Source of the DNA: a virus
Virus genome (UHGV): UHGV-1798460
Direction: 5' to 3' (one strand)
Length of the DNA stretch: 12,978 bases
The notes below the pieces were generated by a model. It did no database searches, was not told where the DNA came from, and worked only from the letters and a program-made list of their open reading frames with translations. The position numbers and the translations under genes are program-made. The first letter of the stretch is position 1. The number at the start of each line of letters is the position of its first letter. Below are positions 6,529 through 12,978 of the stretch, piece by piece.

Positions 6529-7497
6529 TTAGTAGGTTATTTTTGTTGCGAATACTTCGCCTTTTACGATGGCTGTTATGATATTTTTAGCAACATCTTC
6601 TGATGCACCAACCTTGATAAGGTCAGCAAGTATTTTGTTATTTACTTCTTTCCGGTGAGCTTTATCCTTTGCTCTACACTCTTCCTCTTCCTTGATTCTT
6701 TTTTCTTCTGCTATTCTGGCTTGCTCTTTTGCTTCAGCCTCGCGCCGGATTCGTTCAGCCTCCTCCTGTGCTTTTCGGCGTTCTGCTTCGATTGCCGCCT
6801 GCTTTTCTCTTTCAGCTCGTTCTGCTGCCTCTTTTGCTTCGCGCTGTGCTCGTTGCTCGGCTTCAATGCGTTCACGCTCTGCACGTTCCGCTGCGGCCTT
6901 AGCTTCTGCTTCTCGCCTTGCTGCTGCTTCAATTTCGGCTTTTGCCTTTGCTTCGGCTTCTGCTCTGGCTTTCTCTTCAGCTTCTCTTTTTAAGCGTTCT
7001 TCATGCTCTCGCTTTTCCTGCTCCGCTTTGAGTCTTGCCTCTTCTCTTTGGCGGTCAAATTCGCGATCCATCAAAATCGCTATTTCATGGTCAGACTCAA
7101 TTTGCTTTGCGAGAGCTTCAGCTGCTGCCTTAGCTTCTTCTTCGGCTTTAATCCGCGCCTGTTCCTCTTCATAATCAGTAAGAGGCTGGCGTGCCTTGGA
7201 TTTCAGCTCATCAAGGCGATCACGCACTGTCTTGCGGTTGGCATCAATTAGCTTTGGAATTTCCTTCAGTTCAGCAACAAGGTCTTTTCCAAGACCATCG
7301 AGATATGTTTTCGTCTGCGCAACTTTATACGCCAGAGAAGCGATCTCCTTTCTGCCCTTTGCCGTTGTGATATCAGGCACAAAGGACATAACTTCACGTT
7401 CAACCTTTTGAAGGATTTCTTCAATCTGGTCGGCAGACTGAAATACAGTCATTGCATTTGCTTTTTCAATAACAACTAAATCTGTTACTTCACTCAT
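6529..7497 (-). CDS. Coiled-coil protein (322 aa) with a long E/R/K/A-rich central repeat region
   Basis: Start ATG at 7497 with GGAGGA upstream. The ORF-track 5' extension to 7551 runs through the terminator hairpin and is rejected. The central 150 residues or so are almost entirely E, A, K and R. Confidence 0.65.
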   Translation of the reverse strand: MSEVTDLVVIEKANAMTVFQSADQIEEILQKVEREVMSFVPDITTAKGRKEIASLAYKVAQTKTYLDGLGKDLVAELKEIPKLIDANRKTVRDRLDELKSKARQPLTDYEEEQARIKAEEEAKAAAEALAKQIESDHEIAILMDREFDRQREEARLKAEQEKREHEERLKREAEEKARAEAEAKAKAEIEAAARREAEAKAAAERAERERIEAEQRAQREAKEAAERAEREKQAAIEAERRKAQEEAERIRREAEAKEQARIAEEKRIKEEEECRAKDKAHRKEVNNKILADLIKVGASEDVAKNIITAIVKGEVFATKITY

Positions 7498-7509
7498 ATA
7501 TCCTCCGTC

Positions 7510-7538
7510 AAAAAAATTGCCCTCACACTGGAGGGCAA
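7510..7538 (-). terminator. Intra-operon rho-independent terminator (tL-like) immediately upstream of the coiled-coil gene RBS
   Basis: On the minus strand: stem TTGCCCTC/GAGGGCAA with loop CAGTGT, followed by TTTTTTT. The T-run ends 3 nt before the GGAGGA of the next gene. Confidence 0.55.
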
Positions 7539-7672
7539 AGAAGATTTCCAATAATCAGAACAAGTCGGCTCCTGTTTAGTTACGAGCGACATTGCTCCGT
7601 GTATTCACTCGTTGGAATGAATACACAGTGCAGTGTTTATTCTGTTGTTTATGCCAAAAATAAAGGCCACCA

Positions 7673-8214: not shown

Positions 8215-8418
8215 TTACCTCGCTGTAACCTGCTTACTTGTACGATGACCAGCTGCGAAAAGCGCAACTTCTGGCAGGCAGACAGTACCACCTTCAACTT
8301 CCTTCTGAAGCGTTCCGGCAAGCGAAATGGCTCTTGAAACACGTTTACTGGCTCCGTCCATGATTTTCATGAAAGCCATATAGTGCATTGGCTTCTTTCC
8401 TTGCTTGTTTGGCATCAT
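8215..8418 (-). CDS. Small ORF at the position normally held by the N antiterminator; start uncertain and no arginine-rich motif
   Basis: The ORF overlaps the HNH gene 3' end by 74 nt if it starts at 8418. Candidate ATGs at 8388 (weak AAGGAAAG) and 8361. It is the second gene after PL. Confidence 0.3.
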   Translation of the reverse strand: MMPNKQGKKPMHYMAFMKIMDGASKRVSRAISLAGTLQKEVEGGTVCLPEVALFAAGHRTSKQVTAR

Positions 8419-8878
8419 CTAAAAGTTTGAATGAGCCTAGGTATTTTCGTTTTCCATCCACAGTTATCGATGCAACATAAAACCCATGCTCTTTTCTTGC
8501 TTCAACACCTGTAACTCCAGTTGATGAAGATGATTTTAAAGGCATGTTTTTCATATTCTCTTTGAAAGAAACGCTTCTTAAATTGGAGATTCTGTTGTCA
8601 TCCTTAACGCCGTTTATGTGATCAATCACATCAGGCCAGTAGCCATGCACGTAAAGCCATGCAAGTCTGTGAGACTTAAATTTTTTACCTCCAATATTTA
8701 TTCTCAGATAACCCTTGTTGTCAGGTGAGCCAGCCTTTTTACCTGGATACTTCTTGTTCCACGTCAAGGCAGCTCTGTTATCCGCAAACAAATGCTTTGC
8801 TCTCGGCTTCCAATAAAAGTCACCACTCACAGGATTGTAATAAAGAATCTCCCTTACAGACGCTTGAGTAAGATCCAC
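8345..8878 (-). CDS. HNH endonuclease with C-terminal AP2 DNA-binding domain (free-standing homing-endonuclease type)
   Basis: GTG start at 8878 with AGGAGG 5 nt upstream. HNH_3-type motif HRLAWLYVHGYWPDVIDHINGVKDDNRISNLR, followed by an AP2-like GVTGVEARKEHGFYVASITVDGKRKYLGSF. Confidence 0.8.
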   Translation of the reverse strand: MDLTQASVREILYYNPVSGDFYWKPRAKHLFADNRAALTWNKKYPGKKAGSPDNKGYLRINIGGKKFKSHRLAWLYVHGYWPDVIDHINGVKDDNRISNLRSVSFKENMKNMPLKSSSSTGVTGVEARKEHGFYVASITVDGKRKYLGSFKLLDDAKQARKEANALYGFHENHGRSQ

Positions 8879-9184: not shown

Positions 9185-9916
9185 TTAGTAGTCAACTACA
9201 GACCACCAGAAGATTCTTCCGATGATCTCGATATCGCTTAGATTCTTTTCTTCTTGTGGGTATTCCAGTGAGTTAAAGCTTCTAATGCTTACCTTGTCAG
9301 GCCCTGATCGAAAGAGAATCTTAATGCGTTTCCAACCGTTCTCGTTAATGGCGTAAATCTTTCCGTCAACTATTTTCTTATCGTTGGTGTTAACAGCAAC
9401 TGTTGTTCCATCAGGAATGTTTGGCTCCATGCTGTTGCCACGAGCCGGAAAACAAACAACCCCGCTTCCATCACTGTTCGCGCCAACTCTGCGAAGGGTT
9501 GATTTGGAGAAGCGCAACATAAAGCCGTTGTGATCTTCATCAATCACCCGACCATCCCCGCATGCAAACTCAATATCTTTAAGGTAAGGAATTTCAACTT
9601 CATCACCTCTTAAAGGCGTTCCTCCATCCCATGGGTCCAAATATCCCCACGTGCTTTCATGAGGAATAGAAGATTTTGGATTATAAGGTTCAACTCCCTC
9701 ATCACGCATTGGCCCAGTTCCATCGGAAAGCCATTCCGTACGAACTCCAAGCACTTTTGATATTTCAAAAAGTTTGCGCGTATTGCGTGTTTTTCCAGAC
9801 GTAAGTTTCCAGACGCTTGGCTGAGACATGCCAACAGCATTGCCAAGAGAAGCCTGAGTAAACCCAGCCTGATCCATCGCGTATGTAAGCCTTTGAGAAA
9901 AAGTATCTAGTTTCAT
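9185..9916 (-). CDS. cI: CI-like phage repressor (N-terminal HTH, C-terminal S24 LexA-type autopeptidase domain)
   Basis: HTH region QASLGNAVGMSQPSVWKLTSGK; S24 motifs GNSMEP (Ser nucleophile) and a downstream KR. Divergent from cro across an operator region. Confidence 0.8.
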   Translation of the reverse strand: MKLDTFSQRLTYAMDQAGFTQASLGNAVGMSQPSVWKLTSGKTRNTRKLFEISKVLGVRTEWLSDGTGPMRDEGVEPYNPKSSIPHESTWGYLDPWDGGTPLRGDEVEIPYLKDIEFACGDGRVIDEDHNGFMLRFSKSTLRRVGANSDGSGVVCFPARGNSMEPNIPDGTTVAVNTNDKKIVDGKIYAINENGWKRIKILFRSGPDKVSIRSFNSLEYPQEEKNLSDIEIIGRIFWWSVVDY

Positions 9917-9957: not shown

Positions 9958-9984
9958 AAAGCTATTTACTTTCTGAATAGCTTT
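9958..9984. promoter_or_regulatory. OR operator: perfect inverted repeat AAAGCTATT-N9-AATAGCTTT overlapping PR
   Basis: Read directly. Extra partial half-sites (AGCTATT-like) at 9937-9943 and 9985-9991 suggest a tripartite operator. Confidence 0.6.
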
Positions 9985-9993
9985 GGCTATTAT
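9965..9993 (+). promoter_or_regulatory. PR-like early-right promoter (TTTACT-17 nt-TATTAT)
   Basis: -35 at 9965-9970, -10 at 9988-9993; the operator half-site lies within the spacer, mirroring PL. Confidence 0.5.
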
Positions 9994-10024
9994 CCTGATT
10001 GTGAATTCAGCAGGAGTTATTTTT

Positions 10025-10255
10025 ATGGTCAACAAGGCTATTAAAGCGGCTATTGACTCAGTAGGAAGTCAGCAAAAGTTAGCTGATGCCTGCGGTGTTA
10101 AGCAGCCGTCTGTATGGGCTTGGTTGCATGGGAAGAAAAGGGTATCCGCTGAAAATGCCAAGCGCATTGAAATGGCTACCAATGGAAGCGTCCCTGCATA
10201 CCTGATTCGCCCTGATTTATCCGCTTTGTTCCCCAATCCGAACAAAGCAGCTTAA
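10025..10255 (+). CDS. cro: Cro-like repressor (76 aa)
   Basis: ATG at 10025 with AGGAG upstream. HTH QQKLADACGVKQPSVWAWLHGKK; divergent from the repressor. Confidence 0.75.
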   Translation: MVNKAIKAAIDSVGSQQKLADACGVKQPSVWAWLHGKKRVSAENAKRIEMATNGSVPAYLIRPDLSALFPNPNKAA

Positions 10256-10374
10256 TAAAGCAAATTTTTATACCGAACGGCCCGGTATACGGTCGGGTGC
10301 CCGGCGTGGTCATGGATGACTGTCAATGGTGCACAATAAAAAACCAAATTATTTACCTATGGAAATAGTAAGAA

Positions 10375-10671
10375 ATGGAACAAACAAGTTACAGCAAACT
10401 ATCCCAGCGTGACGTTGATCGCGCAGAAACCGATTTACTCATCAACCTGTCAACGCTTACCCAGCGCGGTCTGGCAAAGATGATTGGCTGTCATGAATCG
10501 AAGATAAGCAGAACGGACTGGAGATTTATTGCTTCGGTCTTGTGTGCTTTCGGAATGGCATCAGACATCAGTCCGATTAGCAGGGCTTTTAAGTATGCGC
10601 TTGATGGACTCACCAATAAAAAACGCCCGGCGGCAACCGAGCGTTCTGAACAAATCCAGATGGAATTTTAA
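10375..10671 (+). CDS. cII: CII transcriptional activator
   Basis: The C-terminus TNKKRPAATERSEQIQMEF matches the lambda CII C-terminus as I recall it; HTH LAKMIGCHESKISR. The start is not well supported by an RBS. Confidence 0.8.
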   Translation: MEQTSYSKLSQRDVDRAETDLLINLSTLTQRGLAKMIGCHESKISRTDWRFIASVLCAFGMASDISPISRAFKYALDGLTNKKRPAATERSEQIQMEF

Positions 10672-10693
10672 CAACATCCAACGAGGTAATTAT

Positions 10694-10966
10694 ATGCGAA
10701 ACAAAGGCTTTAATCCACCTGATACACACAAAGAAGCTAAGCGTTTGCGCTTCCTTCGTTCCATTGATGAAAGAACTCAAATCTCTTTTGTGAAAGTTGC
10801 CAGAACTGAGCTTCTGAAGGCTGAGGCGAGGGCGTTGCTCCCGTCTCTACCAAAAGAGGAGGGATATACGTTCATTCCAAACGCATTTCTGGAAAAGCTT
10901 CTCAAAGAAGACATATCCGTAAGTCAGTTTAACGATGTTCTTAAGGTCTTTCGTCAAGGCAGGTAG
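10694..10966 (+). CDS. Hypothetical protein (90 aa) between cII and the replication initiator
   Basis: ATG at 10694 with GAGG 6 nt upstream. The ORF-track N-terminal extension overlaps cII and is rejected. Confidence 0.5.
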   Translation: MRNKGFNPPDTHKEAKRLRFLRSIDERTQISFVKVARTELLKAEARALLPSLPKEEGYTFIPNAFLEKLLKEDISVSQFNDVLKVFRQGR

Positions 10967-10968
10967 TT

Positions 10969-11916
10969 ATGAGCAATACAGCAAAAATCTACGATTTCAG
11001 CGCCGCACACGAGCGCAGGAGCAACAGGATGGAGAACCAGAAAACTGGTTACATTCCGTTGTACCGGAGCATTCTGAAACAGTCATGGGCGAAAGATGTT
11101 TATCTTCGCACCCTGTGGGAAAACCTTCTCCTGAATGCCGCCAGAAAGCCATACAAAGCGAATTTCAAAGGTCATGAATGGCATCTGCAACCCGGTCAAC
11201 TGGTTGTGACAGCAGCTGATTTAGGTCTTCAGTTATGCGACAGACATGGCAAGCCAGCAAGCCGTGATCAGGTTGAGCGGATGCTTCAGGTTTTTGTGAA
11301 AGAGGGGATGATCTCCATTGATGGAGAGAAGCAAAAAGGTCGTGTGATAACCATCACAAATTACCATGAATATGCTCAAAAAATGGACAATTCACCCGCA
11401 CATGAAGCCGCACAAACAACCGCACATGATGCCGCACATGATGAAGCCAGTAATGGCGCGGCATTCAGCGCACATGCCGCACATGAAAGCGCACATGAAG
11501 CCGCACAAACAACCGCACATCATGAACAAGAAGGTATTAACAAGAATATAAATAATACCCCCCTACCCCCCAATGGGGGAGGCGATGGGCAGGTTAAACC
11601 TGAACGTCGCAAGGCAGAACGAATCGACTACGAATCCTTCCTGAACGCCTACAACACCGAAGTCGGTGACAGACTTCCACACGCTGTTGCGGTCAACGAG
11701 AAACGAAAACGCCGCCTGAAGAAAATCATTCCGCAACTGAAAACGCCAAACGTGGACGGTTTCAGAGCGTATGTCAGGGCGTTTGTGCATCAGGCCAAGC
11801 CGTTTTACTTCGGAGACAACGACACTGGCTGGACGGCAGATTTTGATTACCTGCTGAGGGAAGATTCGTTAACGGGAGTACGGGAAGGGAAGTTTGCAGA
11901 CAGGGGGATTGCATGA
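10969..11916 (+). CDS. Replication initiator, lambda O-like (N-terminal iteron-binding domain, repetitive linker, C-terminal domain)
   Basis: N-terminus [11 protein letters not shown] resembles lambda O MTNTAKILNFG. The gene contains the tandem repeat and AT-rich tract expected of an embedded origin. Its stop overlaps the helicase start (ATGA). Confidence 0.7.
11396..11524. repeat. Iteron-like 12-bp tandem repeats (CCGCACATGANG family), two blocks, inside the O-like gene; candidate replication origin
   Basis: Units read at 11396, 11408, 11420, 11432 and 11477, 11489, 11501, 11513. A 30-nt segment gcacatgaagccgcacaaacaaccgcacat occurs twice (11398-11427 and 11490-11519). Confidence 0.55.
11527..11580. 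promoter_or_regulatory. AT-rich tract plus C/G palindrome next to the iterons; candidate DNA-unwinding element of the origin
   Basis: aaggtattaacaagaatataaataata followed by cccccctaccccccaatggggga. Confidence 0.4.
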
Positions 11917-12978
11917 GACAGGATATCGAAGCGAGCGTTATCGGCGGTCTGCTGATTGGTGGATTAACTCCAACCGCCAGCGACGTTCTGGCAACACTGG
12001 AGCCGGAAGCGTTTTCAATTCCGCTCTACCGGAAAGCCTTCGAGGTTATCCGCAAGCAGGCGAGAAACAGAAACCTAATCGATGCGCTGATGGTTGCCGA
12101 GGCGTGCGGAGAGGAGCATTTCACGTCAATCCTGATGACCAGCAAAAACTGCCCGAGTGCCGCAAACCTGAAGGGATATGCCGGAATGGTCGCGGATAAC
12201 TATCATCGCCGTCTGGTGCTGGAAATCATGGATGAAATGCGTGAACCAATTCAGAGCGGAACCATCGACGCATCGAGTCAGGCGATGGATGAGCTTGTAA
12301 AGCGTCTTTCAGCCATCAGAAAGCCCCGTGACGAGGTTAAACCTGTACGGTTAGGGGAAATCATTACTGACTACACTGACACGCTTGACAGGCGTCTGAG
12401 GAACGGAGAAGAGTCAGATACCCTGAAGACCGGAATCGAAGAACTTGACGCTATCACCGGAGGGATGAACGCGGAAGACCTGGTGATTATCGCCGCTCGT
12501 CCTGGTATGGGGAAAACCGAACTGGCGCTGAAGATTGCCGAAGGTGTTGCAAGCCGCGTTATTCCTGGTTCTGACGTCCGGCGCGGGGTATTGATTTTCT
12601 CAATGGAAATGAGCGCATTGCAGATTGCAGAGCGTAGCATTGCCAACGCCGGGAGGATGTCGGTTAGCGTACTGCGAAATCCTGCATCGATGGATGACGA
12701 GGGCTGGGCACGCGTTGCTAACGGCATGAGTCAGCTTGCAGATTTGGATGTATGGGTAGTCGATGCCTCGCGGTTATCGGTAGAAGAAATTCGCTCAATC
12801 GCAGAACGGCACAAACAGGAAAATCCAAACCTGTCACTCATCATGGCGGATTATCTTGGCCTGATTGAGAAGCCGAAAGCAGACCGCAACGACCTCGCAA
12901 TTGCTCACATCTCCGGAAGCCTGAAGGCGATGGCGAAAGACCTGAAAACGCCTGTTATCTCCCTAAGTCAGCTTTCGC
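11913..12978 (+). CDS. DnaB-family replicative helicase (partial; continues past the window end)
   Basis: This frame is open from the ATG at 11913 (AGGGGGA RBS) to the window edge, and is absent from the ORF track because it has no in-window stop. DnaB-like N-terminus [10 protein letters not shown] and Walker A ARPGMGKT. Confidence 0.8.

Follow-up and report, generated by a model that had tools for sequence, protein, structure and literature searches.

A probable replication origin of 12-bp direct repeats inside the O-family initiator gene of a lambdoid prophage

The window, by which we mean the whole stretch of DNA analysed (12,978 nucleotides of the UHGV virus genome UHGV-1798460), represents the early region of a P22/HK97-type lambdoid prophage, in which S24-type repressor, Cro-like and CII genes precede an O-like gene and a gene for a DnaB-type replicative helicase (Table 1). 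Pfam places a Phage_rep_O domain over residues 20–132 of the 315-aa O-like product (E 3.4e-15), and judged by this match the protein is an O-family initiator. The ATG of the helicase gene overlaps the stop codon of the O-like gene (ATGA, from 11913). No DnaA box was found in the window and no promoter-like site in 10300–12100. On the minus strand at 10620–10647, inside the 3′ end of cII, a strong terminator-like hairpin followed by a T-run sits where lambda and P22 have the oop RNA terminator.

Further open reading frames lie to the left of these genes. At the left end of the window an antitoxin-like ORF with a SocA/Panacea domain (345–833, +, E 6e-18) is followed by a 182-aa ORF (855–1403, +) for which Pfam gave no match, and the two could be a toxin-antitoxin pair. 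The early-left accessory genes include an ORF with an Rv2179c-like 3′–5′ exoribonuclease domain (1746–2402, –, E 2e-75), and an HNH endonuclease ORF (8345–8878, –, HNH_3 E 3e-15) occupies the early-left region upstream of the repressor gene. The ORF at 6529–7551 (–), also without a Pfam match, carries hexamer and 18-bp tandem repeats at 6902–7029 (GCTTCT x14, Tandem Repeats Finder); the CDS of HF4s that roughly corresponds to it is annotated as a coil-containing Gam/antitoxin-like protein.

Table 1. Features of the early region and of the putative origin, in window coordinates
Feature	Position	Strand	Basis
S24-type repressor gene	9185–9916	–	
Cro-like gene	9983–10255		
CII gene	10375–10671		
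O-like replication initiator gene, 315 aa, putative origin mid-gene	10969–11916	+	ORF and Pfam Phage_rep_O
Coding region of the N-terminal, putative origin-binding domain, closing with a conserved A-rich leader ahead of the first repeat	10969–11395	+	AlphaFold2 model
Iteron block 1, four phased 12-bp units (CCGCACATGAAG, CCGCACAAACAA, CCGCACATGATG x2)	11396–11443	+	
Central box CCAGTAATGGCGCGGC, then ATTCAG	11447–11462	+	Codon table over 38 loci, collection scans
Extra core copy GCGCACATG, 9 bp, out of phase	11468–11476	+	
Iteron block 2, four phased 12-bp units (CCGCACATGAAA, GCGCACATGAAG, CCGCACAAACAA, CCGCACATCATG)	11477–11524	+	
AT-rich, A-strand-biased tract, presumed DNA-unwinding element	11525–11557	+	82% A+T, low duplex stability
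Module junction, Mulock/Yersinia-type similarity to HK97/P22-type similarity	11549–11557	.	DNA alignments and tblastn mosaic pattern
C-rich segment and palindrome CCCCCA-A-TGGGGG, encoding PLPPNGG	11558–11579	+	
Coding region of the C-terminal domain, presumed helicase contact	11558–11916	+	Identity to HK97/P22 proteins
DnaB-type replicative helicase gene, running off the window end	11913–12978	+	Pfam DnaB E 2.9e-13, DnaB_C E 5.8e-48

The O genes of CUS-3, Gally, JEP4, HF4s and about 50 Stx2a-converting phages match the O-like gene at 98–99% identity, and 283 of 5426 complete E. coli genomes (∼5%) carry the putative origin segment. A single-protein query against genome contigs returned no relatives; these came with an alignment query, and the comparison set used here comprises 36 diverged Enterobacterales chromosomal loci (N-domain 47–88% identical), 80 near-identical viral contigs and several annotated phages. 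The Ala-His repeat set, to which most of the counts below refer, has 31 loci with N-domains 66–100% identical. Among the near-identical genes, 77 are of identical length with copy number unchanged, and there are 66 haplotypes, the window included. Because these contigs were chosen on N-domain identity, the low diversity of their N-domains is partly a selection effect, which leaves comparison with the C-terminal region unaffected. Many database entries for the initiator (proteins P0001–P0012 and others) are ‘partial’ and 150–210 aa long, which suggests short-read contigs often ending in or just past the region of the repeats and the mosaic junction.

Tandem Repeats Finder reports a period-12 array of 9.6 copies at 11396–11507 with the consensus CCGCACATGAAG. 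Its motif SCGCACA starts at 11396, 11408, 11420 and 11432 and again at 11468, 11477, 11489, 11501 and 11513, so that nine copies, all on the + strand and in a single reading frame, fall between 11396 and 11519; the window as a whole has 11 matches where 3.7 are expected, a count that was reached in none of 200 shuffles. Eight of these units are phased and share the core CCGCACAT, with the 8-bp core reading C-C-G-C-A-C-A-T, and they are arranged four and four, just as the original prediction of two blocks of 12-bp repeats with eight units in total had it. The ninth, out-of-phase copy is, on the comparison of related sequences, probably not a functional unit; its fourth base differs in 22 of the 66 haplotypes, many of which have T (GCGTACATG), and the O gene of Klebsiella phage Mulock has no core copy at this position. 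One isolated core, CCGCACA (encoding AAH), occurs at 11003–11009 near the 5′ end of the O-like gene, and we treat it as a chance match because it is not conserved in Mulock or in a Yersinia phage.

No dyad symmetry was found in the arrays of the window or of Salmonella phage L by a scan that does detect the dyads of lambda, P22 and HK97, whose iterons have 6–8-bp inverted arms 5 bp apart. Where lambdoid origins have dyad-symmetric iterons of 18–20 bp as sites for O dimers, the units here are 12-bp direct repeats. As they are head-to-tail units without a dyad, the mode of binding must differ from that of lambda O dimers and cannot be copied from lambda.

Directly to the right of the iterons lies the AT-rich tract, with 20 A on its top strand. 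The original prediction had an AT-rich segment at this place but made it 27 bp long, whereas the tract extends over 33 bp. In the two replication genes no 30-mer is less stable than that at 11528–11557, and in the entire 13-kb window only one is. Among the 66 haplotypes there is not a single segregating site in the 48 bp from 11525 to 11572, compared with 2–7 per 30 bp in the C-terminal coding region. The C/G-rich palindrome expected after the AT segment is also present, with arms CCCCCA (11567–11572) and TGGGGG (11574–11579) and a preceding C6 run. Its counterpart in P22, CCCCCT-AA-AGGGGG, lies inside the annotated rep_origin, and the sequences of HK97, ENT1 and L114 show a comparable C5/G5 element. 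A role of the palindrome as a terminator was ruled out, as the T-run is absent.

This layout can be set beside those of the classical lambdoid origins. In lambda, too, the linker-coding part of a Phage_rep_O gene contains the origin, iterons are again followed by an A-rich tract and then an inverted repeat, and the N-domain forms one exchange module with the iterons while the C-domain forms the other with its partner. Lambda differs in having four 18-bp dyad-symmetric iterons spaced 20–24 bp, and both the two-block layout and the central box are absent from it. The lambda iterons are bound by O dimers, and in place of a phage helicase the partner there is the loader P together with host DnaB (PMC7466680). 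The lambda ori architecture that had been assigned to this locus is thus found in the order of iterons followed by an AT tract, but not in the dyad-symmetric iterons of ∼18–20 bp. P22 gene 18 and HK97 gene O (gp54) share with the window gene the right-hand end of the AT tract and the C5-N-G5 palindrome, as well as the C-terminal domain and a DnaB-type helicase as partner, and in P22virB-3 a rep_origin, annotated by similarity, covers the repeats, AT tract and palindrome at the homologous place. Their N-domains, however, are unrelated at the sequence level, they have no central box, and their iterons are of ∼20 bp with dyads (TTTACC-5-GGTAAA in P22, ATTAGCT-5-AGCTAAT in HK97).

Plasmid iterons have roles in control (autoregulation, titration, handcuffing), and the repeats described here might in the same way be bound by the initiator mainly for control, with opening and initiation taking place at another site, a reading into which the isolated core near the 5′ end of the gene would fit. 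We consider this very unlikely, given that the weakest duplex of the replication genes directly follows the array and is invariant in 66 haplotypes, that the arrangement matches the lambda and P22 origins, and that the 5′ core is absent from the Mulock and Yersinia genes.

The N-domain was modelled with AlphaFold2 at moderate confidence (mean pLDDT 72.5, with disorder at its end, aa 141–145), and the model predicts a winged helix with H2 at aa 82–88, H3 at aa 99–111 and a beta-hairpin wing at aa 115–129. A Foldseek search of the PDB with this model returned generic winged-helix regulators only (E ≥ 0.007), and we found no solved structures related to the initiator by sequence. Over residues 190–315 the window protein shares 97.6% identity with HK97 gp54 and 60% with P22 gp18, two proteins whose N-domains are unrelated to that of the window protein and whose genes have different repeats. 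Residues 3–143 are 74–80% identical to the O proteins of Mulock and the Yersinia phage, which have lambda-type C-terminal domains and a P gene alongside, and keep the CCGCACA array. The junction between the two kinds of similarity lies within the AT tract. The N-domain and repeats are found joined to at least four C-terminal types (lambda-type, Xenorhabdus-type, L114-type and P22/HK97-type), and, as is the case for lambdoid origins, the iterons co-vary with the N-domain and the C-domain with the helicase or loader gene.

Covariation extends to single residues. The core type is near-uniform within each locus, CAC in 22 loci versus CGC in 9, and the split matches residue 82 (A/P versus S) and residue 100 (D versus H) with no exception, A82S and D100H (codons 11212–11214 and 11266–11268) accompanying a switch of the core from CCGCACAT to CCGCGCAT throughout the locus. 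On a neighbour-joining tree of the N-domain with columns 82 and 100 left out, the G-type loci are scattered over at least four places. Since the model puts H2 at aa 82–88 and H3 at aa 99–111, residues 82 and 100 are each predicted to start a helix of the helix-turn-helix. Joint exchange of DNA blocks spanning those codons and the repeats could account for the covariation, rather than independent co-evolution. Recognition of the cores by some other host or phage factor, and not by the O-like N-domain, appears highly improbable: such a factor would be in keeping with the central box, which is common to replicons with unrelated initiators, but the core sequence changes with the N-domain clade, changes within the clade with residues 82 and 100, and remains attached to the N-domain when the C-terminal domain and the helicase or loader are exchanged.

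Being strictly tandem within an ORF, the array has to have a period that is a multiple of three, and in consequence every unit contributes x-Ala-His-x to the inter-domain linker as well; together the repeats encode aa 143–186 of the O-like protein. Across the 31 loci there are 193 cores, all in the same frame and spaced 12 bp apart in 129 cases; the usual unit count is 3+3, and the blocks, measured from the last unit of the first to the first unit of the second, are 45 bp apart in the window and in 28 of the 31 related loci. The logo over these loci reads C-C-G-C-(A/G)-C-A-T followed by four weakly constrained bases, and comparison with these related lambdoid O genes finds the core of the 12-bp unit conserved at synonymous positions. 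The base preceding the Ala codon is C in 155 of 156 Ala-His units, the Ala codon is GCA in 116 and GCG in 40 but never GCC or GCT (the N-domain uses the four Ala codons about equally), and the His codon is CAT in 153. Variation among the 66 haplotypes is likewise concentrated at unit positions 9–12 and in the spacer, with positions 2–8 almost invariant. In distant N-domain clades the peptide is wholly different and the 12-bp two-block DNA layout is retained, with cores (CCGAT-type, AGGTAAC, CGRTACAC and GTCGAA) that encode unrelated peptides. The DNA element and the peptide linker are constrained together, as had been proposed, with the constraint on the DNA dominating (the wobble C and the CAT codon above), and the peptide repeat is largely a by-product of the DNA element.

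The repeats could also be read as a slippage-generated, low-complexity flexible linker with no role as DNA in cis, with the origin lying elsewhere, and in favour of this the linker that they encode between the two domains is indeed simple in composition and the structure model is disordered at aa 141–145. This reading is barely credible, as the synonymous positions are fixed, the copy number is constant in 77 close relatives, the 12-bp layout is conserved between clades whose peptides differ, and the bases between the cores vary freely within a locus, so that whole-unit homogenisation cannot explain the conserved cores.

We conclude that 11396–11579 is very probably the replication origin (ori) of this lambdoid prophage, located in the linker-coding centre of its own O-family initiator gene. 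That the origin lies inside the O-like gene was part of the original prediction, and it is well supported by sequence comparison, through the Phage_rep_O domain, the helicase gene, the position of the P22 origin, the conservation of synonymous sites, the constant copy number, the invariance and low stability of the AT tract, the inheritance of the repeats with the N-domain and the concerted change of the cores. As in lambdoid origins generally, the repeats lie between the Phage_rep_O domain and the C-terminal domain (from ∼aa 190), several putative initiator-binding units are repeated (eight in phase), and the AT tract adjoins them on the right. As in origins of the phage L/CUS-3 type, there are two blocks of 3–4 repeats at 12 bp, a 45-bp gap and a central box.

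For gene 18 of Salmonella phage L, six imprecise 11-bp repeats have been described as the likely origin (Zaworski et al. 2020, PMC8022706), and the corresponding rep_origin of GenBank MW013503 is putative, having been inferred by similarity. In phage L, as in the window, an O-like gene precedes a DnaB-like helicase gene, and repeats with a period of 12 bp (TGTCCAACGGA+1), which have the same box in their central spacer (CCAGTAATGACGCGGC), are followed by an AT tract (AACAATAATATAAATAATA); phage L differs in the sequence of its iterons and in having 3+3 units in place of 4+4, and its initiator is only 22% identical to that of the window. The short-period array is not new, because phage L gene 18 shares the design and is annotated as a putative origin. 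As far as the sequences tell, the origin in the window is a fresh iteron sequence within a design already noted in phage L. The origins of Rep_3/RepB plasmids and the pri-rep-ori origins of PICIs are also alike in having dyad-free direct repeats, winged-helix initiators and an AT-rich neighbour, and some plasmid and satellite iteron replicons have the identical 16-bp central box; these origins are, however, non-coding and beside the initiator gene, and their initiators are not homologous to O.

In the mechanism that we propose for the origin, the N-terminal winged-helix domain would read the 8-bp cores head-to-tail, and not as dimers on dyad sites as in lambda, with residues 82 and 100, the latter at the start of the recognition helix, predicted to touch the core near position 5. 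A nucleoprotein array formed over both blocks would strain the adjoining AT tract and lead to its opening. The C-terminal domain would then recruit the DnaB-type helicase encoded by the phage itself, in the way that P22 gp18 recruits gp12.

Between the iteron blocks of the window there is an exact match to the box CCAGYAATGRCGCGGC, conserved at wobble positions in most of 38 loci and in nearly all O-like clades of this type, phage L included. Its codons are xCC AGT AAT GGC GCG GCx, Ser being encoded by AGY throughout and Ala by GCG, and the bases 3′ of the box are usually YT-NN-AG. A scan of IMG/VR for CCAGYAATGRCGCGGC gave at least 120 matches. Among the matches listed, 44% of the dereplicated sites have a 7-mer occurring at least five times within 200 bp, compared with 0.5% of control positions on the same contigs, and about half are flanked by iteron-like repeats; the sites without repeats look like chance matches. 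Outside O-like genes, and again among the matches listed, the box is in non-coding DNA at the centre of ∼20 unrelated repeat families. Box-centred non-coding arrays of this kind are present at loci L128, L132, L153, L166, L189, L194, L213, L230, L231, L249 and L252, and the genes adjoining box arrays encode Rep_3, D5_N/SF3 helicase, PrimPol-PriCT_2, DUF927, Toprim-VapE and DUF5906/Pox_D5 proteins. In the Rep_3 case the box is in the RepB origin of ∼97-kb E. coli plasmids; in the D5_N/SF3 case it belongs to an E. coli island with integrase, Icd-like protein, SSB and capsid genes, and related sequence occurs in 1138 genomes.

Neither the lambda and P22 origins nor those of HK97 and P4 contain the box. 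At locus L253, near the end of the contig, a second, diverged copy (CCCAGTGATGGCGCGGC) lies ∼70 nt upstream of the exact box. A near-match with two mismatches at 12553–12568 (–), in the helicase gene of the window, proved to be ordinary conserved coding sequence that is also present in HK97. A conserved hairpin of the box and its right flank found no support, as the folding energies of 27 contexts were no better than those of shuffles (z –1.9 to +1.4), and neither did a fixed orientation of the box towards the AT tract, the least stable region lying 3′ in 14 of 21 types, which is not significant. With Rfam models no match was obtained in the window at gathering thresholds, and five other loci had none at the box at E ≤ 1. 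Literature searches by iteron and box sequence found nothing relevant, and the description of PICI origins does not mention a GC-rich box.

It is possible, although we would stop short of calling it probable, that CCAGYAATGRCGCGGC is a discrete, previously undescribed cis element common to the iteron origins of many unrelated proteobacterial mobile elements. Its carriers may include O-type phages, SSU5-like RepB phage-plasmids, capsid-encoding PICI-like islands with SF3 helicases, and PrimPol/DUF927/Toprim-VapE replicons. If the box is indeed a shared element, it is probably read by something common to all of its carriers, and the candidates are a host replication factor or the host primase, which might begin the first primer at the invariant CAG, read as CTG on the template strand. 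One idea in the primase case is that the conserved 14 nt correspond to the primer.

Beyond the first reading of this DNA, the comparisons bring out a symmetry-free direct-repeat array, a predicted contact of residue 100 and a shared central box. They yield testable specifics, in that the recognition core would be 8 bp, binding would be head-to-tail, unlike that of lambda O, and residue 100 is predicted to contact core position 5, D going with A and H with G. The replication modules of Stx2a phages have been classed as uncharacterised in the Stx literature (PMC8951638), and the module described here, with the origin as its expected cis site, is that of CUS-3-like prophages, the LF82 prophage Gally and many Stx2a phages. 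If the primase idea is true, the initiator-specific iterons would merely position a universal start signal, and if unrelated initiators do build their arrays around the same box, this would point to a shared origin-firing step, whether priming or the action of a host factor, that is undescribed for these replicons.
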